64,000 bases of DNA from Eubacteriales bacterium (GTDB lineage Bacteria; Bacillota; Clostridia; Oscillospirales; CAG-272): NCBI GenBank assembly GCA_045659245.1, contig JAZOWN010000066.1, positions 2,213-66,212 of the forward strand. The letters are read 5' to 3'. The notes under the pieces are model-generated. The model saw only the letters and a program-made list of their open reading frames with translations. It did no database searches and had not been told where the DNA came from. This document shows positions 35,039 to 64,000 of the stretch, piece by piece. Numbering within the stretch: the stretch's first letter is position 1; every line of letters begins with the position of its first letter. The position numbers were made by a program, and so were the translations under genes.

Positions 35039-35509
35039 CTAAGCCTCGGTGTGTCTGCCGAGAAAGCCTGCGGCTGTTTGAATGAGCTTGGCTTCCGCAT
35101 CAACCCCAAATACATTATCCCTTTGAGGTTTATCAGCTTCGCTGTCGGATACTGATGCAACACAGCCGATAACGTCTCCCTCGCTTATAATGGGCATAGC
35201 ACATCTTACAAAATGATTTTTGGAGTCGGCAATAACGGGAAGCTTGTCCGTACCCTCTCGCCAACTGTAAAAACCCCTGCCCTCAATAATTTTTTCGATC
35301 TCCTCGGATAAGTTCTTATCGGTATATTCCTTTTTGGAAACACCCGCGCTTGCAATGACCGCATCTCTGTCACTGATTATGACGGAAAGGTTGCAGGTCT
35401 TGTAAAGCGTTTCTGCGTACTTTGATGCGAAGCTTGACAACTCGCCTATGGGAGAGTATTTTTTGAATATGACCTCTCCCTCTCTGTCGGTATATATTTC
35501 AAGCGGGTC
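35039..35509 (-). pseudogene. spoVT: spoVT 3' fragment (about codon 32 to stop) detached from its 5' end by insertion
   Basis: 156 aa DPLEIYTDREGEVIFKKYSPIGELSSFASKYAETLY...PIISEGDVIGCVA...IQTAAGFLGRHTEA. These align by eye with B. subtilis SpoVT from D32 to the C-terminus. The AbrB-type first ~31 codons are missing here. Confidence 0.8.
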
Positions 35510-37270
35510 AACCACGCTGACAACATTGACGCGAAAAACCTTGTCGTGCTGCTTATTCGCACGCTGGACTACCTTGATTTCATAGAAATCTTCGGTTTTT
35601 TCGATATTTTCCGCGTCCTGATCAAAATTTACGGGTATCTCGCTTTCTGTATCGCCAATATTTGCGATCGTTCCGGTTCGGAGTAGCTCGTCCACCTCGG
35701 CTCTTAGCTTGACCTCGATATGATCCTCAAAAACAACCATATGGCTGATAATCAGGTTAATGTCGTTTTTGTCAAGATGATCCTTTTCGAGAATCTCGTT
35801 GAAAACGTCGATGACGGTCTTGGCTACACGGTTGACACGAATCATCGTATTGGTTGTGTCAGATGCCAGCTCAAGCTGATGATGCAACCCCTCAATGTGA
35901 TTCTCGGACTTTTCGATCTCAACGTCGTAAGCCTCTACCGTAACCGAATTTTCCCCGGATTTTGCCGCCGCCTTTGCGCGTTGCTTGACGAGTGAACGCA
36001 AAACCTCGCGCTCTTCTTCAATCTCTTCCATCAGCGCAGCAATTGCATTCTTTCCGGAATCCATGTGCTTCGGTTCGTTCTTGATGACCTCCTCCAGTAT
36101 CTTAATCATAGAGGCAGAGTTATCACGGACCTTTCGGATATACTCCTTTAGCACCTCATCAAGAAAATCAACGTCAACCTTATGGGTTGTGCATCCGCTC
36201 TTCAAGCCGCGTCTGTGATAGTTACCACAGATATAGGAACGGCTCAGGTTCTCTCGGTTTCTGGCAAACATCGGTGCGCCGCAATCACCGCAAACAAGAA
36301 ATCCAGAATAGTTATTTTCGTTTTTCTTGATGCCGCGGTAGTGCGCCTTTGCCCTTAGCTTCAACTGCTCCTGCACCGTCGTAAACGTGCGATAATCCAC
36401 AATGGGCGTGTGGAAATTCTCGAACACAATCTGCTCACTTTCGTGAACAGGAACCATCGGTCCATTGATGGTCTTGCGCTGATACTTTCTCGAGCGAAGC
36501 GTTCCGATATAAAAATCGTTTTTCAGAATCTCTCCCACCGTCTGGATGCTCCAAACATCCTTGACCACTGCGTGATACTCATCTCCCATCGCCTCCTTTC
36601 GAGCCTTTTCTCGCATTCTGGCTGTGGGGATTTTTTGCGCGGTTAGGTGTTCGGCAATCTTCTTGTAGCCCCAACCGTTTATGTAGAGGCGGAAAATCTC
36701 GCGAACCACCTCGGCGGCGGGCTCGTCAACCTCGTAGATCATCTTCTTGGTGTTCTTCATTACGTAGCCATAAGGTACGGAACAAATCCACTCTCCGCGC
36801 TGCTGACGGCTCGCAATAACTGCCGAGACCTTTTCACTGGCATCGGTTACGGGCATTTCGTTGAACATGAAGAACATCTTCGTCTTCATAAGATCGCCCT
36901 TCTTCATAGAGTTCGTGTCAAGCGAATCTCCAATCGAAATAATGCGAAGCCCAAGCTCCATAAAATCCTCAAACTCGGACATGCCCTTGCTGAGTCTTCT
37001 TGAAAAACGGCTCAGATCCTTTACGATTAAAATATCATACTCACCGTTTATCAGCTTTGGTCTCAGCTCTCCGTGATAACACGGACGCTTTTCAAAGCTG
37101 TATCCCGACTTATCGCGGTCTTCAAAGTAATCAACCGTACTCGTGGGAAAGTGAAGCTTGCAATACTCGTCAATGATTGCCTTCTGGTTTTCAATACTCG
37201 TATTCGTTCCGTTTCGCTCTTCATCGACCGAAATACGGGTATAAGCGGCAATTTTGTATCTTTCCACCAT
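35039..37270 (-). CDS. large serine recombinase (resolvase + recombinase + zinc-ribbon + DUF4368-like regions), reading in frame into the spoVT 3' fragment
   Basis: N-terminus AAYTRISVDEE...DRDKSGYSFEKRP...VKDLSRFSR (catalytic Ser/Arg pattern), Cys-rich zinc ribbon (CGDCGAP...CGNYHRRG), coiled coil, and DINLIISHMVVFEDHIEVKL. No stop codon before the junction at about 35510. Confidence 0.85.
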   Translation of the reverse strand: MVERYKIAAYTRISVDEERNGTNTSIENQKAIIDEYCKLHFPTSTVDYFEDRDKSGYSFEKRPCYHGELRPKLINGEYDILIVKDLSRFSRRLSKGMSEFEDFMELGLRIISIGDSLDTNSMKKGDLMKTKMFFMFNEMPVTDASEKVSAVIASRQQRGEWICSVPYGYVMKNTKKMIYEVDEPAAEVVREIFRLYINGWGYKKIAEHLTAQKIPTARMREKARKEAMGDEYHAVVKDVWSIQTVGEILKNDFYIGTLRSRKYQRKTINGPMVPVHESEQIVFENFHTPIVDYRTFTTVQEQLKLRAKAHYRGIKKNENNYSGFLVCGDCGAPMFARNRENLSRSYICGNYHRRGLKSGCTTHKVDVDFLDEVLKEYIRKVRDNSASMIKILEEVIKNEPKHMDSGKNAIAALMEEIEEEREVLRSLVKQRAKAAAKSGENSVTVEAYDVEIEKSENHIEGLHHQLELASDTTNTMIRVNRVAKTVIDVFNEILEKDHLDKNDINLIISHMVVFEDHIEVKLRAEVDELLRTGTIANIGDTESEIPVNFDQDAENIEKTEDFYEIKVVQRANKQHDKVFRVNVVSVVDPLEIYTDREGEVIFKKYSPIGELSSFASKYAETLYKTCNLSVIISDRDAVIASAGVSKKEYTDKNLSEEIEKIIEGRGFYSWREGTDKLPVIADSKNHFVRCAMPIISEGDVIGCVASVSDSEADKPQRDNVFGVDAEAKLIQTAAGFLGRHTEA

Positions 37271-38532: not shown

Positions 38533-39129
38533 TCAATACATCTTTATACAACTGACAAGCACACCCTGTATATCACACTCTTTCACTATTATATCTTTCA
38601 TGGTTTTATTTTCAGGGTGGAGTATTATTTTACTTCCGTCTTTGAAAAATCGTTTTAGCGTTGTTTCTCCGTCTACAAGAGCCACGATTATATCTCCATC
38701 ATTGGCGTAGTTTTGTTTCTTGACTACAATAAGATCACCTTTTCTTATTCCTATATCTATCATACTGTCACCGTATGTGCGAAGCATAAACATCTCACCC
38801 TCGCCAAACAGCTCAGTTGGGAAGGCGTATGTTTCCTCTATCTCCTCAACGCCTATATTTGGCGCTCCGCAAGCGACAGAACCTACGAGGGGTATCATAG
38901 TAGTCCCACCGTGCTTTAGATTTGACGGTATTTCTATATTGCCGAGATTGGTACGTGTAATGCGTCCTGCGTTCTCAAGGGCGTTTACATATCGGAATAC
39001 GGAGCTTAACGTCGTCATTCCCGTTTCGTGCATTATCTGACGGTAGCTTGGAGACTTTCCTTTTTCCATTTGATACGTTGTTATATAACGCTCCACTTTT
39101 TCAAGCATATCCTGGTTTAATGTTCTCAT
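38533..39129 (-). CDS. LexA-like S24 peptidase repressor
   Basis: 198 aa from the ATG after GGAGAG. Winged HTH (SPSYRQIMHETGMTTLSSVFRYVNALE), VACGAP cleavage-site region, GDSM serine and VVKK lysine. Confidence 0.8.
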   Translation of the reverse strand: MRTLNQDMLEKVERYITTYQMEKGKSPSYRQIMHETGMTTLSSVFRYVNALENAGRITRTNLGNIEIPSNLKHGGTTMIPLVGSVACGAPNIGVEEIEETYAFPTELFGEGEMFMLRTYGDSMIDIGIRKGDLIVVKKQNYANDGDIIVALVDGETTLKRFFKDGSKIILHPENKTMKDIIVKECDIQGVLVSCIKMY

Positions 39130-39147
39130 AAAATGCTCTCCTTTCAC

Positions 39148-39183: not shown

Positions 39184-39212
39184 ATTATAGCATCTTTCTA
39201 TACTAATGTCAA
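39184..39212 (-). promoter_or_regulatory. lexA-like gene promoter
   Basis: Minus strand TTGACA (39212-39207), 17-nt spacer, TATAAT (39189-39184). Confidence 0.65.
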
Positions 39213-44864: not shown

Positions 44865-45902
44865 TCAAACCGCCTCACGCATTATTTTAAGTTTCCTGCC
44901 CGTCGATGTCTGGACAAGCTCCTGATATATCTCGGGGTATTCCTTTTTAAGTCTTGCCGTATCGGTTCTGTTCTGTGTTTTTGTTACGTAATCAATAAGT
45001 ACTCTGCCATCGGGTGACTCAAACACACCGTGCTCGTGAGAACCCATTGCATCAATTATCCGCACTGAATGTGCTTCAATAGCCTCCTGTATTCTTTTTA
45101 TTTCTTTATTGTGCGCCTCAACTTCATCCTGAAGCGTTAAAATTCTTCTGATTGGCTTTGCGAATTTGCCTGAAAATTCTATTGTAGGAAGACTCGGATC
45201 ACTGACGGGATATATACGTGCCAAGGACTCAAGAGCAAGACCGGGATCAACGTCGTCCATATTGGGTGGCTTGTCCTTCTCCAAACTCCATATCCACTCC
45301 TCAAGCTTACTGAAAATTATCCCTTCCTTTACGCTATCTCTTTCTATGCAGGGATATGCATGATCCTTTTCGGGATTGTTGCCCCACACGGTGGAAAATG
45401 CGCCTATATTAACGTCTGCTACGGCAAGATAATATCTCAGCTGAAGCTCGTAATAAATAGGATATGCTCCCTTTGCCCACTCGTGAGCTTTATGATAACT
45501 ACAGCTTTTACACTCAAGTATGCCTTTTTCACCGTCACTCTTTCTTATATAGCGGCGGTCAAAATCTGCAAGCGCGTACGGAATGTCTGCGTGACGGTAC
45601 ATTATTTTATCGTCAATGACCTTATCGCCTGTTTTTCTTCCGTACCAATGAGCCGCTATGGGTTCAAGAAGATTACCCATTTCAAGCTGTGTCTCATTCA
45701 TTTTCTTGGCAGGACTCATCCTACCTTTCTTTATAAGCCAAAGTTCTTTTGGTGTTATCCACGGTGAAACTCCGAATATTGCCGCAATATCACTGCCGCC
45801 AACGGTATACGGAATATCTCCTCTCGGTCCGTGCATGCGGCATTCGAGCCAACGCTTTCGGGACATTCCCGTGGTATCACACAGCGGTATAGGTGCCGAC
45901 AT
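44865..45902 (-). CDS. YqaJ-like viral recombinase exonuclease (PD-(D/E)XK)
   Basis: TVGGSDIAAIFGVSPWITPKELW N-terminal signature. 345 aa. Confidence 0.75.
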   Translation of the reverse strand: MSAPIPLCDTTGMSRKRWLECRMHGPRGDIPYTVGGSDIAAIFGVSPWITPKELWLIKKGRMSPAKKMNETQLEMGNLLEPIAAHWYGRKTGDKVIDDKIMYRHADIPYALADFDRRYIRKSDGEKGILECKSCSYHKAHEWAKGAYPIYYELQLRYYLAVADVNIGAFSTVWGNNPEKDHAYPCIERDSVKEGIIFSKLEEWIWSLEKDKPPNMDDVDPGLALESLARIYPVSDPSLPTIEFSGKFAKPIRRILTLQDEVEAHNKEIKRIQEAIEAHSVRIIDAMGSHEHGVFESPDGRVLIDYVTKTQNRTDTARLKKEYPEIYQELVQTSTGRKLKIMREAV

Positions 45903-47044
45903 CAGTAATCCACCGGCTTTGCGAGATCGTAATCACGCCAATTCAGCTTCAAAGCGCGAGCCATACTCTCCTCAAGAGCAATAAGCTTACTTTCAGGAGT
46001 CTTGTCGCACTTCAACTGATACGGTATTTCCTGCAAAGCAAAGAAAACGTCGTGAGCAGTAGCCACACCACCGCCATAGGTCATCTCAAACCGCGAAATT
46101 GCTTCAACAGCCTGCTTTTTAGGCATAGCCAGTTTCTTGCAAATACGTGTCATGGCATTTATGGGATAGCTCAGAACTGTTTTCTCAAGCTCTTCGAGAC
46201 GATGAATACCGTCTTCGTATTGAGCAAATAGCTGTTCGAGGGCTTTTTCAAAGTCTGCAACCGTCTTTTTATTGCGATGATCTACATCAATACAACCACC
46301 TATGTTTATCGAATATCCGTTTCCAACCAGCAAAGCCGAAACCTTAGCTGAAGATATTCCTATATCCGATGTTGTAAATCTTACCCCAGGAGTCATACGG
46401 CGAATTATTCCGCCTTTGCCGCGAGACTCAAGCAATCTTGAATATGTGTCAAGAAGGTCATTTCGCTGGTCGGGCAAGCTCCAAGAAGCGCTTGTAATAG
46501 CATGGTCGCTATATCCGCTATTAAACTCATTGCCGGGGAAACGCTCATCAAGCTTTTGCTGTAAAGCGGTCAGAAGCTCCTTTATGGGCAATACCGAATA
46601 GTCTGATTCATCACCGGAATGAATAGCCGAAACCTTTTCGTCACGTATCAGCACCAGTGCGTCTGTTGTCGAAAGATTCAGACAATCGTTCACTACGCGA
46701 GCAAGAAGCGGACGCTCAAGTCTTGGCAGAGATGAGCCATTTATCTTTGCGCGGTCAAGCATAGTTTTGTATGCTGTTGATCGCATAGGATAAACATCGC
46801 CGCCAACGGCTATCGCAAGACCGAGGTTTTTTACCGTATCCTTAACTGCCTCCTCGCTTATCCCGAAAGCAAATCTGTCGGGGTTCAAGTAAAGTTCAGA
46901 TTCCTCATGCAAGGGTTCTACCTGAAGATCCTTTATCTTGCACCGAAACCATTTTGAATTTTCGTTTTGTTCTCTATGAAAGTTCATTATCATAGGGAAC
47001 GAATTGAAGGTTGTGGAATAATTATCCATACATACGTTTTGCAT
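45902..47044 (-). CDS. conserved phage/plasmid protein, possibly DUF932-like
   Basis: 380 aa, first gene after promoter/leader module A. The family assignment is a weak recollection only. Confidence 0.3.
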   Translation of the reverse strand: MQNVCMDNYSTTFNSFPMIMNFHREQNENSKWFRCKIKDLQVEPLHEESELYLNPDRFAFGISEEAVKDTVKNLGLAIAVGGDVYPMRSTAYKTMLDRAKINGSSLPRLERPLLARVVNDCLNLSTTDALVLIRDEKVSAIHSGDESDYSVLPIKELLTALQQKLDERFPGNEFNSGYSDHAITSASWSLPDQRNDLLDTYSRLLESRGKGGIIRRMTPGVRFTTSDIGISSAKVSALLVGNGYSINIGGCIDVDHRNKKTVADFEKALEQLFAQYEDGIHRLEELEKTVLSYPINAMTRICKKLAMPKKQAVEAISRFEMTYGGGVATAHDVFFALQEIPYQLKCDKTPESKLIALEESMARALKLNWRDYDLAKPVDY

Positions 47045-47082: not shown

Positions 47083-47120
47083 ATATATAACAAAAACCGC
47101 CAATCCACAGACTGACGGTT
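47083..47120 (-). terminator. second leader hairpin + U-run of module A
   Basis: Minus strand AACCGTC-N12-GGCGGTT followed by TTTTGTTATAT, about 70 nt upstream of the ATG at 47044. Confidence 0.45.
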
Positions 47121-47144
47121 TATGCTTTTATTTGCCTGTAAACG

Positions 47145-47184
47145 AAAAGTGCCAATATCACCCTTGGGCAATACTGGCACTTTT
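47145..47184 (-). promoter_or_regulatory. conserved leader hairpin of module A
   Basis: Minus-sense AAAAGUGCCAGUAU...AUAUUGGCACUUUU forms 14 bp including one G-U that pairs only in the minus-sense RNA. Its base is shared with the module B hairpin. Confidence 0.55.
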
Positions 47185-47221: not shown

Positions 47222-47310
47222 GATACTTTACGTAGATATTATACCAAAGAAAATTTACTCCGTCAAGGCTTTGCCTAAAGTTTGCGTACTATTGGCGTAA
47301 TATTGGCGAA
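47222..47310 (-). repeat. promoter/iteron module A (copy 1 of 2)
   Basis: Minus strand: 11-bp tandem repeats CGCCAATATTA / CGCCAATAGTA / CGCAAACTTTA (47308-47276), TTGACG (47266-47261), 17 nt, TGG-TATAAT (47243-47238), 5 nt, box CGTAAAGTATC (47232-47222). Confidence 0.8.
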
Positions 47311-47315
47311 ATACT

Positions 47316-57926: not shown

Positions 57927-58397
57927 TTACGTATCGAAGAATGCTCCGTTGCCAAACGCCTCAAAGCCCTGCCAATTTTCAGATTGCTTTTGTGTCTGCT
58001 TTGCTTCGGACGTTTCTTCTACGTTAGAGCCATTGTCAGAATTTTTGGCTTTTGATGCTCCTCCGCCAGCATAGCTGGCGGACGCAAGATACATAACGTA
58101 GCCCTCCTTTTCCTCTTTTGTGGTCTGATCCTGCCACGCCTCGATTTTCACCTCGCCCTTGAGATTTACCCAAGAGCCCTCCTTAAGCTGCATTCGTTTT
58201 ATCTGCTCGATAAGATCGGGGCGGTCTGTCTTGACCTGAAGGTTTACCCACTTGGTTTTATCGTCGGCTCTGGGATGATACATCTTTTTACCTACGCTAA
58301 ACCGAGCAAGGCTTCCCTTCTCTCCATCATTGAAACGAATTGTGGGGTTGCTGCCGTATCCCTTTGAGATGACGGCGTTTTCCAAAATAAGAAACAT
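57927..58397 (-). CDS. single-stranded DNA-binding-like (OB-fold) protein
   Basis: 156 aa with a beta-rich N-terminal ~110 aa, then a Gly/Ser/Gln-rich tail ending in aromatic/acidic residues (GAFFDT), as in SSB tails. First gene after module B. Confidence 0.45.
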   Translation of the reverse strand: MFLILENAVISKGYGSNPTIRFNDGEKGSLARFSVGKKMYHPRADDKTKWVNLQVKTDRPDLIEQIKRMQLKEGSWVNLKGEVKIEAWQDQTTKEEKEGYVMYLASASYAGGGASKAKNSDNGSNVEETSEAKQTQKQSENWQGFEAFGNGAFFDT

Positions 58398-58469
58398 AAT
58401 TTTTCCTTTCCGCAGTTTTTACTGCAATAAATATATTTTATTTCTCCCGAAATGTTCGGGCTGAAATCT

Positions 58470-58515
58470 AAGAAAACAAAAAGTGCCAATCAGCACATAT
58501 GTGCTAACTGACACT
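58470..58515 (-). terminator. conserved leader hairpin + U-run of module B
   Basis: Minus-sense AGUGUCAGUUAGCACAU/AUGUGCUGAUUGGCACU forms 17 bp (three G-U pairs valid only in the minus sense), followed by UUUUUGUUUUC. Confidence 0.6.
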
Positions 58516-58558
58516 GTGAATTAACTCGGATAAACTTTTATTGCTCAATGGCAAATAA

Positions 58559-58646
58559 GATACTTTACGCTCTTATTATACCAAATCTGAATGTATCCGT
58601 CAATAGCTTTCGCCAATGTCGGCGGAATATTGGCGGAATGTTGGCG
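58559..58646 (-). repeat. promoter/iteron module B (copy 2 of 2)
   Basis: Minus strand: CGCCAACATTC / CGCCAATATTC / CGCCGACATTG (58646-58614), TTGACG (58603-58598), 17 nt, TGG-TATAAT (58580-58575), 5 nt, CGTAAAGTATC (58569-58559). Same spacing as module A. Confidence 0.8.
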
Positions 58647-58653
58647 AAAGCTA

Positions 58654-59303: not shown

Positions 59304-59360
59304 TAAAAAAATAAAGTACCGTAAAAAGCAAAGCAAAAACTCACTTTACCTTTTACGGTA
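59304..59360 (-). terminator. terminator of the DUF4160-DUF2442-XRE-58aa unit
   Basis: 10-bp perfect stem TACCGTAAAA / TTTTACGGTA (59317-59360), followed on the minus strand by CTTTATTTTTTT. Confidence 0.55.
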
Positions 59361-59362
59361 TA

Positions 59363-59391
59363 ATTTTATCATATTTTCTTTTGGTTGTCAC
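59363..59391 (-). promoter_or_regulatory. promoter candidate overlapping the terminator
   Basis: Minus strand GTGACA (59391-59386), 17-nt spacer, TAAAAT (59368-59363). The predicted TSS falls inside the terminator 5' arm. Confidence 0.35.
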
Positions 59392-61139: not shown

Positions 61140-61937
61140 CTACTGTAATATTAGACCTTCAGCTACTTTTATTATTTCATTAATACTAGAAAACTCGCCC
61201 ATTATTCTATACTCATATTGATTGTCTTGCCATACTATAGTGTAGACGCTCGTATTACTTAAATCCTTTGTAATTATTGCATCATAATTATTTATACTGG
61301 TTTTATAAATTTCTTGAGATTCTGAATTAGTCCAATGTAATTCTGAAGTTATAACATTTTGAGAAAGATAAAAAATGCAATTCTCTTCATAAAGAAAACT
61401 AACCACATAATATGTTTCATCTTCAAAATCAACTACCATATCATATTCTCCTGGTAAATATGATAAAGTTGCCTTCTTCGTTATAGTTGTAGGATAAACA
61501 ATACTTTCTGCTGTAGCCTCGTTATTTTCAGAATTTTTTGTTTCTGTCATATTTGCTTCTGTTGTATCCATACTGGGTTCTATAAACTCGTATTTAGGTT
61601 GACTACCGTCATTATCACCAAATCCAATTGCAATATAATCTTCATACCACTCCACCAAAAATGCTTTTATTGCATTCCTTATCTTGGGGATAGACACACA
61701 TGCGGTAAGAGCTATAACAACAGATATAATACAAGCTACAGCAATCCATTTTGTAGCAATTGTTTTTCTTTTGCCGCCTGAAATATATCCTTTTGCAATT
61801 CTATTCATTCTTTTTTGCTGTGAAGGAGTGATCTCAAATCCTGTACCGTCAACATTCAAAAACTCGTCTGCCATTTGATCGCAACTTTTTTCAGCAGCAG
61901 CATACATAAGCAGTTCAAAATTATTGTATGTACTCAC
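61140..61937 (-). CDS. single-pass membrane protein, putative anti-sigma factor (DUF4367-like)
   Basis: 265 aa, overlaps the sigma gene stop. Cytoplasmic N-terminus, TM helix WIAVACIISVVIALTAC and an extracytoplasmic C-terminus. Confidence 0.45.
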   Translation of the reverse strand: MSTYNNFELLMYAAAEKSCDQMADEFLNVDGTGFEITPSQQKRMNRIAKGYISGGKRKTIATKWIAVACIISVVIALTACVSIPKIRNAIKAFLVEWYEDYIAIGFGDNDGSQPKYEFIEPSMDTTEANMTETKNSENNEATAESIVYPTTITKKATLSYLPGEYDMVVDFEDETYYVVSFLYEENCIFYLSQNVITSELHWTNSESQEIYKTSINNYDAIITKDLSNTSVYTIVWQDNQYEYRIMGEFSSINEIIKVAEGLILQ

Positions 61938-62503
61938 TTTACATTCCTCCCTGCCTTCAGCTTCTCTTTTAGGATCTTCTTCGCTCTGAAAATACGACCG
62001 TTAACCGTATTTGTAACAACCCCAAGCATTCTTGCAATGTCAATATTTTTCATATGCATGTTGTATTTTAAAAGAATTGGAATTTTATACATATCATCCA
62101 ATTCATTAATCGCTTTGGCTAGAGCATCTTTATTTTCTTCGGTTACTGAAATATCAAATAACGAACTTTCTTCTGTCGTATTTTCATCACAGATACACTC
62201 TATATCCTCACCGGAGGAAAACATTTCACTTTTACGCTGATTTCTTCTATAAATGTTAATTGCCTTACTTCGTACACATACAAAAATCAAACTAATTGTT
62301 TTCTTGCTTTTATAATCAACAAAATTTTCCGCATGCTCACAGATATATTTCATTACTTCCATAGCTGCATCTTCGGCATCTTGCTTATTATTTAAGATAC
62401 TGTAAGCGACACTCTCCATTTTAGGAAAGTATCTTTGAAATATTTCGTTTACCGCATATCGCTCATCATCCGTTTCGATAATTTGCATTAATTCCAGTAT
62501 CAT
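61934..62503 (-). CDS. ECF-type sigma-70 family RNA polymerase sigma factor
   Basis: 189 aa with region 2 (SILNNKQDAEDAAMEVM) and a region 4 HTH (MKNIDIARMLGVVTNTVNGRIFRAKKIL). Confidence 0.7.
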   Translation of the reverse strand: MILELMQIIETDDERYAVNEIFQRYFPKMESVAYSILNNKQDAEDAAMEVMKYICEHAENFVDYKSKKTISLIFVCVRSKAINIYRRNQRKSEMFSSGEDIECICDENTTEESSLFDISVTEENKDALAKAINELDDMYKIPILLKYNMHMKNIDIARMLGVVTNTVNGRIFRAKKILKEKLKAGRNVK

Positions 62504-63540: not shown

Positions 63541-64000
63541 AAAATTCAGAAAAACAATTATTTTTTAATCTTTGCTCTTTCATATCTCCTGACAAGGATA
63601 AAATAGGAGCACTCGTTGAAAACGGGGCTGCGACGCCGGAACTCATTGGGTATCTACTTACCAATCGCATGGGAGGCGTTGCATATGATGTTCTTATGAG
63701 AACAAGATACTTGGGTACAGTAGACAGAGAAATCAAAGGCTCCTTGAAGTGTGCAAGATTCTATTGTGAAAAGTACAATGAGGATTTCTTCGGATGCTTG
63801 AACTATCTGTCCACCCTTCTTGATGCCTGCGGAGCCCCATATGCGCTTCTAAAAGGAGCGTATCTGTGCGGAAAGTATCCTATTGGTTACCGTACTTCAA
63901 ATGATATAGATGTACTGATTAGTCCAGAGGACGTAGGAACGGTATCAGCAAAGCTCAAGCTGGCAGGATTTAAGCAGGGTTACATCAAAAACGGTAAATT
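63537..64000 (+). CDS. nucleotidyltransferase-family protein (NTP_transf_5-like), 5' partial
   Basis: My own translation is open to the window end: MKNSEKQLFFNLCSF...PYALLKGAYLCGKYPIGYRTSNDIDVLISPEDV, which resembles the uncharacterised nucleotidyltransferase family motif R.s.DiDlL. Not in the ORF track because it runs off the window. Confidence 0.55.
   Translation, partial: MKNSEKQLFFNLCSFISPDKDKIGALVENGAATPELIGYLLTNRMGGVAYDVLMRTRYLGTVDREIKGSLKCARFYCEKYNEDFFGCLNYLSTLLDACGAPYALLKGAYLCGKYPIGYRTSNDIDVLISPEDVGTVSAKLKLAGFKQGYIKNGK

Follow-up and report, generated by a model that had tools for sequence, protein, structure and literature searches.

Genetic organization of the element and its two operons

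The window (the whole stretch of 64,000 nt analysed here) comprises a chromosomal part, in which a THF riboswitch (RF01831, 81.9 bits) lies at 2723-2823 on the minus strand, and a part that begins with a large serine recombinase ORF. The recombinase has a C-terminal SpoVT_C domain, and its last 157 amino acids match residues 32-177 of B. subtilis SpoVT (42% identity, E = 3e-31). This match suggests that all of the DNA from about 35.5 kb to past 64 kb belongs to a mobile element which entered spoVT of a Firmicute able to form spores. The element seems to interrupt the gene at about codon 31, in the same manner as skin in sigK and SPbeta in spsM, and since the 5' part of spoVT is absent from the window, it extends past position 64000. 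No virion genes are visible in the examined part of the element, which is termed prophage-like here.

Two operons of the element are relevant here (Table 1), with all their genes on the minus strand. Operon B starts with the gene of a divergent SSB-like protein, to which the NCBIfam SSB models give a match below the cut-off (E = 1.4e-6), and a homologue of which in the related locus L037 shows a weak match to PF00436; it is followed by the genes for an AAA_5 ATPase, a VWA/CobT-like protein, PcfK, DUF7666 and PcfJ. Operon A continues after its first gene with those for a YqaJ exonuclease, a RecD2-type helicase, a DUF3854 protein, a WYL protein and a LexA-like S24 repressor, the last of which (38533-39147) closes the operon and has a 12/12 consensus promoter with extended TG directly upstream (39184-39212, minus strand). 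In addition, another promoter-proximal hairpin is present at 59310-59391 on the minus strand, where GTGACA-17-TGATAAAAT is followed by a stem of ~12 bp (UACCGUAAAAGG..CUUUUUACGGUA) and CUUUAUUUUUUU before a small gene; its counterpart in L002 (1275-1355) has another sequence with the same shape and a U-run. The segment 60000-64000 is low in GC (34%) and encodes an ECF-like sigma factor (61934-62503), a DUF4367 anti-sigma-like membrane protein (61140-61937) and HTH regulators, and related elements (L004) have other genes in its place.

Two homologous promoter-leader cassettes

The cassettes in front of the two operons, module B and module A, align over ~190 nt and share one order of parts: operator-like repeats, a promoter of the form TTGACG-17-TGnTATAAT, a box AGUAUC at about +5 (box 1), a small hairpin (P1), a second box (box 2), a longer hairpin (T1) and a U-run. 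The repeats, three or four in each cassette, are ~10-11 nt long and TTCGCCAAYA-like, and they end just upstream of the -35 hexamer (3 nt short of it in module B); their pattern matches nowhere in the window except at the two cassettes. The first and last copies of the module B array form a 13-nt inverted repeat, in which a compensatory change of C-G to T-A is found in L017. Both promoters score 11/12 plus extended TG and outscore every other minus-strand match in their part of the window, and the promoter is conserved in all homologues. Moreover, a 27-nt pattern spanning -10 and +1 occurs in the window at these two sites only, against 0.00 expected. The stretch CGTAAAGTATC around the inferred start is identical in the two modules, and a 20-nt segment differs between them in sequence, yet folds as P1 in both. 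The box between P1 and T1 reads AAAGTTTATC in both modules.

Table 1. Features of the two cassettes and of the genes belonging to the element
Feature	Position	Strand	Description
Large serine recombinase ORF	35039-37270	-	743 aa; C-terminal SpoVT_C domain
Operon A first gene	45902..47044	-	380-aa protein without assigned family
Operator-like repeats, module A	47268..47311	-	TTCGCCAATA / TTACGCCAATA / GTACGCAAACT / TTAGGCAAAGC
Promoter, module A	47238..47266	-	TTGACG, 17 nt, TGn-TATAAT; start inferred near G47231
Box 1, module A	47227-47222	-	
P1, module A	47219-47202	-	AAUUAU-CUAAGA-AUAAUU
Box 2, module A	47199-47192	-	
T1, module A	47145..47184	-	15-bp core 47181-47148 plus 3 A-U pairs = 18 bp
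U-run 3' of T1, module A	extends to ~47138	-	
T2, module A	47084..47121	-	12-bp hairpin 47121-47094, -19.8 kcal/mol, then UUUUUGUU (U5)
Operon B first gene	57927..58397	-	divergent SSB-like OB-fold protein, 156 aa
Operator-like array, module B	58606..58651	-	direct ~10-11-nt repeats TTCGCCAACA / TTCCGCCAATA / TTCCGCCGACA, inverted copy TTGGCGAAAGC
Promoter, module B	58575..58603	-	TTGACG, 17 nt, TGn-TATAAT; start inferred near G58568
Box 1, module B	58559..58564	-	AGUAUC, ~+5 to +10; family consensus AGUWUC; invariant columns
P1, module B	58541..58554	-	UUGC-CAUUGA-GCAA; small hairpin
Box 2, module B	58529..58536	-	AGUUUAUC; family consensus AGUUUAWC; single-stranded linker
T1, module B	58482..58515	-	15-bp hairpin; loop AUAU; base AGUGUCA/UGGCACU invariant, including U.G wobble
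U-run 3' of T1, module B	58471..58481	-	UUUUGUUUUCU
B-type distal leader	58404..58467	-	P3, P4, RBS GGAAAGGA; ATG at 58397

The first-pass annotation had described hairpins in the minus-sense RNA about 55-60 nt past both promoters, and they are indeed found 54-60 nt downstream of the two near-consensus promoters. Its coordinates for the two T1 hairpins hold, and its stem lengths need correction: the 17 bp given for module B is 15 bp, and the 14 bp given for module A is a core of 15 bp that extends to 18 bp. The minimum free energy of T1 in its context is -22.6 kcal/mol in module B (z = -5.7, with 0 of 200 shuffles equally stable) and -25.8 kcal/mol in module A (z = -5.7). It had also been proposed that G-U pairs suit the minus-sense RNA, and this agrees with three G.U pairs in each stem and with much weaker folds of the opposite strand (-10.9 kcal/mol in B and -16.3 kcal/mol in A). 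U-runs abut both stems (UUUUGUUUUC in B and UUUCGUUUAC in A). The shared hairpin base, the following U-run and the conserved box reported before were all recovered: the base AGUGYCAGU...AUUGGCACU is exactly common to the two modules, and the box AAAGUUUAUC is exact in both (58538-58529 in B and 47201-47192 in A).

The second terminator-like hairpin noted earlier in module A is likewise present as a 12-bp stem, T2 (CCGUCAGUC..GAUUGGCGG). Its middle part GUCAGU..AUUGGC resembles T1, wobble pairs included, which suggests that T2 arose by duplication of T1 in that lineage. T2 also occurs in the homologues of this leader in L018, L024, L032 and L036, and its sequence is unrelated in diverged copies. 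Module B has instead a distal leader with two hairpins, P3 (AUUUC..CCCGA..UCGGG..GAAAU, 58467-58440) and P4 (GCAG..CUGC, 58425-58412), which is conserved across all homologues of the same type and may be a separate translational or autoregulatory site. At L002, L012, L019, L023, L029 and L033 these two hairpins read GGUUUCU..CCCGA..UCGGG..UGAAAUAAAUA and GCAGG..CCUGC, the latter abutting the RBS of the SSB-like gene.

Distribution of the leader among related elements

In total 28 distinct leader versions were collected, 2-3 per element, in three contexts. The B-type leader precedes the SSB-like gene, the A-type leader precedes the gene for the 380-aa protein and bears T2, and the C-type leader, which lies divergent from a gene for a CI-like HTH repressor, has a T2 of another sequence and further hairpins. 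The C-type leaders (L025, L026, L027 and L004:4610-4850) are ~250 nt long and show past T1 and T2 the conserved hairpins GAGCC..GGCUC and CGGGA-AGCC..GGCU-ACCCG, and that of L004 has an ORF of four codons (MKWV) ahead of the first gene. For the SSB-like protein there are only seven homologue clusters, all of whose contigs bear the B-type leader with variable hairpin tops. And when metagenomes were scanned with a pattern that combines box 2 with the base of T1, 11 loci came out, every one of them a true cassette.

A covariance model built from 19 sequences was searched against the window and the related loci retrieved. It gave the two leaders of the window 118 bits (E 1e-23) and 84 bits (E 1e-15), found no third copy in the window, and detected a C-type copy in L004, an element also bearing a B-type copy. 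Diverged copies with 47-62 bits are found in a GenBank faecal phage scaffold, in five IMG/VR loci (two of them on one 28-kb contig), in a Eubacteriales MAG from NCBI and in a gut lineage that is very common, the AAA-ATPase cluster (P0102) of which is listed on 346 contigs. The gene order is conserved around both cassettes, and the proteins of the diverged lineages are 35-60% identical to those of the window. At the position of the operators the diverged lineages have unrelated repeats, for example CCGGYGAAAACAGCG twice in L029. IMG/VR classifies related contigs as viral and GenBank lists such contigs under 'Bacteriophage sp.', and the DNA runs containing window sequence are gut and bovine gut metagenomes. 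There is no near-identical DNA in GenBank phages or PLSDB plasmids, and no close relatives of the AAA protein were found in IMG/VR by peptide patterns. The strict promoter/+1 pattern and the strict hairpin pattern had no match in IMG/VR, where a looser pattern matched later. In the GTDB genomes the strict promoter/+1 pattern gave one match (L001), which was discarded since it has no other cassette features and is about what chance predicts. Furthermore, no leader match was obtained with Rfam 15 at the gathering threshold in the window, where only the THF riboswitch elsewhere was reported, and in E-value mode the best scores for the B- and C-type leaders were 17-25 bits against thresholds of 45-60.

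Covariation and invariant parts of the leader

With the 28 leaders aligned on the model, 97.6% of the cells are in standard pairs, and 9 of the 17 pairs (39 cells) show changes on both sides. None of 500 shuffles reached any of the five measures, and pairing fell to 27-46% when the partners were slid by 1-3 columns. The P1 helix is 97% paired, with changes on both sides at two of its four pairs. Because the alignment was fitted to the model it favours the structure; independent single-sequence folds recover the T1 hairpin in every variant. Alignment of further homologues, which the first-pass annotation had named as one way to test its hairpins, thus supports both P1 and T1.

P1 and the upper part of T1 vary freely with compensation. 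The bottom pairs of T1, namely A-U, G-C, U-A, G-C, U.G and C-G, are unchanged in 27-28 of the 28 leaders, its 3' arm UGGCACU is invariant, and the only change at pair 7 is a compensatory one from A-U to C-G in L004. The box AGUWUC at about +5, present also in the diverged copies, and the box AGUUUAWC between P1 and T1 are invariant or nearly so, as is the start of T1 at position 53-56 of the aligned leader. That the bottom of T1 is fixed while its top and P1 vary argues for sequence-specific recognition beyond pairing.

Terminator anatomy and alternative folds

When an intrinsic terminator is defined as a stable hairpin with a U-rich tract within 0-2 nt on the transcribed strand, T1 of the leader has each of these attributes, and the anatomy is found in all 28 versions (stem of 12-15 bp with -14.6 to -22.6 kcal/mol, and 6-7 U among the 8 nt that follow). 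A terminator d-score was calculated as well, with modern energy parameters, and is indicative only. The stem of 12-15 bp is long beside those of B. subtilis terminators, which measured 9 +/- 2 bp in a survey (PMC10325885). The proposal of a conserved terminator-like RNA structure is therefore borne out by the strand asymmetry, the G.U pairs, the compensatory changes (n = 28) and the 6-7 U per 8 nt, and the leader structure is supported as an RNA-level, conserved one that resembles an intrinsic terminator directly past both promoters.

Folding of nascent prefixes of the 28 variants gave no conserved alternative antiterminator helix; the 5' arm of T1 is mostly unpaired and has no consistent partner, so that T1 should form by default. 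An RNA-only attenuator or riboswitch, including the zipper type of pLS20, is ruled against by the same result, as no mutually exclusive fold is conserved, and relief of termination would then need a factor. Box 1 (AGUAUC/AGUUUC) is a near-repeat of the T1 5' arm AGUGUC (58559-58564 and 58510-58515, minus strand). It could pair at 5 of 6 positions with the T1 3' arm GGCACU, and both are invariant.

There is no terminator-like site between the upstream gene and either promoter, which makes T1 the first stop for transcription reading in from upstream too. Inside the operons, terminator-like sites are not enriched (12 against 9.8 expected), and thus a processive system is not obviously required past the leaders. 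Two metatranscriptome runs share words with the region, with 1-2 low-depth contigs, all outside the leaders.

Possible mode of action

What the sequences show is a conserved leader structure with the anatomy of a terminator, present at 2-3 operons per element, and no switch made of RNA alone; termination at T1 and its relief by a factor are inferred. Our preferred reading, held at a little short of even confidence, is that at every early operon the leader is an attenuator close to the promoter, with expression off by default until a trans factor recognises the leader's invariant parts. Each early operon, for replication or recombination, is headed by the same unit, in which operators precede a near-consensus sigma-A promoter and a leader RNA of ~100 nt. 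T1 would be an intrinsic terminator that forms by default, there being no upstream competitor for its arms, and polymerase coming from the promoter or from the upstream operon would stop at about +95, or at T2 in the A- and C-type leaders. Expression of the operon would then need a trans factor recognising AGUWUC, AGUUUAWC and the T1 base AGUGUC/GGCACU, which would either block the hairpin or render the polymerase resistant to termination, and the purpose may be to keep the replication and recombination genes silent while the element is integrated. The attenuator reading is supported by the second, different terminator directly past T1 in the A- and C-type leaders, by the recurrence of the leader at 2-3 operons per element and by the layout shared with lambda and HK022 that is described below. 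Several points count against it. The 15-bp stem of T1 has the same length as that reported to have made the pLS20 terminator TerR resistant to conAn antitermination (PMC10325885). If the gene of an element-encoded factor lies downstream of T1, basal read-through would be needed at the start. Terminator-like sites are not enriched within the operons. And Pfam, PHROGs, NCBIfam and PDB sequence searches with the scanned proteins of the element turned up nothing recognisable as an antiterminator, be it NusG-like, Q, N or a protein with an RNA-binding antiterminator domain. The first-pass idea of an antitermination target is supported in spirit, on the genomic logic of a repeated operator-promoter-leader unit, second terminators and the absence of an RNA-only fold.

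It is also conceivable, though rather unlikely, that T1 is a constitutive, partly leaky terminator without a dedicated factor, which would insulate the operons from read-in and from promoter leakage under repression, and which a fixed fraction of polymerases would pass once the strong promoters are derepressed. The canonical terminator anatomy in 28 of 28 copies, the failure to recognise an antiterminator gene in the proteins scanned, the lack of a terminator between the upstream genes and the cassettes, and the insulator terminators documented in Tn916 (PMC11658703) all agree with such a role. However, a generic terminator requires pairing and not sequence identity, whereas here six bottom pairs, the U.G wobble included, and two single-stranded boxes are fixed in spite of a protein identity of 35-60%; and a tandem of T1 and T2 would leave the A- and C-type operons very little expression.

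In lambdoid phages, antitermination sites follow the early promoters, as in OL-PL-nutL and OR-PR-nutR of lambda and in putL and putR of HK022. The leader shares with them an RNA site repeated past each early promoter, shared operators, and operons for recombination and replication; its box and hairpin resemble boxA-boxB of lambda and its two stem-loops resemble HK022 put, while the C-type copy divergent from the CI-like repressor gene in relatives corresponds to the layout of lambda PL/PR-nut or HK022 put. It differs from them in its long hairpin (12-15 bp), in the conservation of the base instead of the loop, in the U-run that follows and in the Firmicute host, and with this long hairpin, conserved base and U-run it itself resembles a terminator. 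We give little credence to a nut/put-like antitermination module of Clostridial prophage-like elements, in which the hairpin with the invariant base would serve both as the default stop and as the loading site of the antiterminator, the factor being a protein of the element or the host that would license passage through T1, T2 and the rest of the operon. No match to an N-like family was found in the scanned proteins of the element, which is weak evidence, as N proteins are small and divergent.

It is doubtful that P1, box 2 and T1 together form a cis-acting processive antitermination RNA in the style of HK022 put, Bacillus EAR, Tn916 canT or conAn2, which would bind to the polymerase as it transcribes and take it through T2 and later terminators, with the U-run as a loading pause. 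A put-like layout is indeed seen in the two stem-loops that come right after every early promoter, are present 2-3 times per element and have conserved sequence at defined places, and the T2 terminators immediately downstream in the A- and C-type leaders could be what such an RNA has to overcome; but B-type leaders have no T2, and T1 itself is an excellent terminator by every sequence criterion. Elements of this kind are not known to be followed by a U-run. The Rfam library is expected to include EAR, and no Rfam model matches the leader, though this is weak evidence.

The chance is slight that the RNA of ~95 nt which ends at T1 is a product in its own right, a leader-derived sRNA from 2-3 loci acting by trans base-pairing or protein titration. 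The leader does look like an sRNA gene, with its strong promoter, its conserved boxes outside the stems and a terminator whose base is conserved, but a duplex scan of the 5' part of the leader against the minus-strand transcripts of the element was no better than with shuffled queries, and since no further promoter is evident for the operons downstream, they must in any case be reached by read-through. Highly improbable is conservation at the DNA level, with T1 as a protein-binding inverted repeat or operator (its 3' arm TTGGCAC is similar to the half-site GTGCCAA or CGCCAA of the upstream operators in inverted form), as an overlapping antisense promoter (the complement of the 5' arm and box 2 is -35-/-10-like, CTGACA-N-TAAACT, plus strand 58508-58536, 9/12) or as a single-strand DNA hairpin that serves replication or transfer, since diverged lineages keep the base of T1 unchanged and have unrelated repeats in place of the operators, the spacer of the putative antisense promoter ranges from 14 to 17 nt with the -10-like hexamer lost in diverged copies, the conserved G.U pairs and compensatory changes suit one transcribed strand only, and the fixed distance between T1 and the promoter suits a transcript. 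On these grounds an extra operator and an antisense promoter in T1/box 2 were both rejected. A sigma-54 -24/-12 reading of TGGCAC was rejected as well, for a correctly spaced GC element is missing.

Comparison with known systems

The attenuator reading has its nearest counterparts in mobile elements of Firmicutes, where antitermination by conAn of pLS20 (PMC8191782) and canT of Tn916 (PMC11658703) has been described, together with the zipper-type leader attenuator cATT of pLS20, which uses an RNA-only antiterminator fold (PMC13401043). In such elements, terminators at the starts of long operons are overcome by element-encoded antitermination, which limits spurious expression (PMC8191782, PMC11658703, PMC13401043). 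The RNAs of conAn, canT and cATT measure 300-450 nt and occur once per element, whereas the leader here is ~100 nt and occurs 2-3 times per element, and it has no conserved alternative fold.

The PR'-qut-tR' region of lambda (Q, 6S RNA) is similar in its strong promoter, conserved initial transcribed sequence, promoter-proximal terminator and short RNA, and the initial transcribed sequence of the leader keeps, as there, the A and the T at positions 2 and 6, respectively, of a -10-like hexamer (nAGTWT); a sigma-dependent pause would be speculation. Unlike in the Q/qut system, the spacer between -35 and -10 (the Q-binding region) is not conserved between modules A and B, and no Q-family protein was found in the Pfam and PHROGs scans of the element proteins. 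In HutP, PyrR, TRAP, LicT/SacY-RAT and LoaP systems, too, a leader terminator is set by a protein reading short motifs beside or inside the terminator. The leader described here differs from these in that it has neither UAG or GAG repeats nor a RAT hairpin that overlaps its terminator, no Rfam model matches it, and the scans of the element's proteins gave no domain of this kind. The leader would work most like the promoter-proximal termination/antitermination of lambdoid phages and Firmicutes conjugative elements. It was not assigned to any known family, given that there is no Rfam match, no alternative fold, no Q region or Q protein, and no N-like or RNA-binding antiterminator among the proteins searched.

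Significance for gut prophage-like elements

Lambdoid phages and several conjugative elements found in Gram-positive bacteria silence costly genes until induction through promoter-proximal termination and antitermination. To our knowledge, almost nothing comparable has been described in prophage-like elements of gut Clostridia. The leader is short, sharply defined, present in 2-3 copies per element, backed by covariation, absent from Rfam and found in a very common gut Eubacteriales lineage, and it is therefore a tractable entry point. An RNA of ~100 nt with an invariant 7-bp stem base could be used as bait for the factor and as a reporter for the induction of uncultured elements. Even if T1 were only a leaky insulator, the leader would still be a well-defined addition to the RNA-family catalogue and would allow better annotation of operons and prophages in metagenomes. 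Judging from the sequence comparisons, this uncatalogued leader motif recurs across a widespread family of prophage-like elements, where it probably gates the expression of their early genes.
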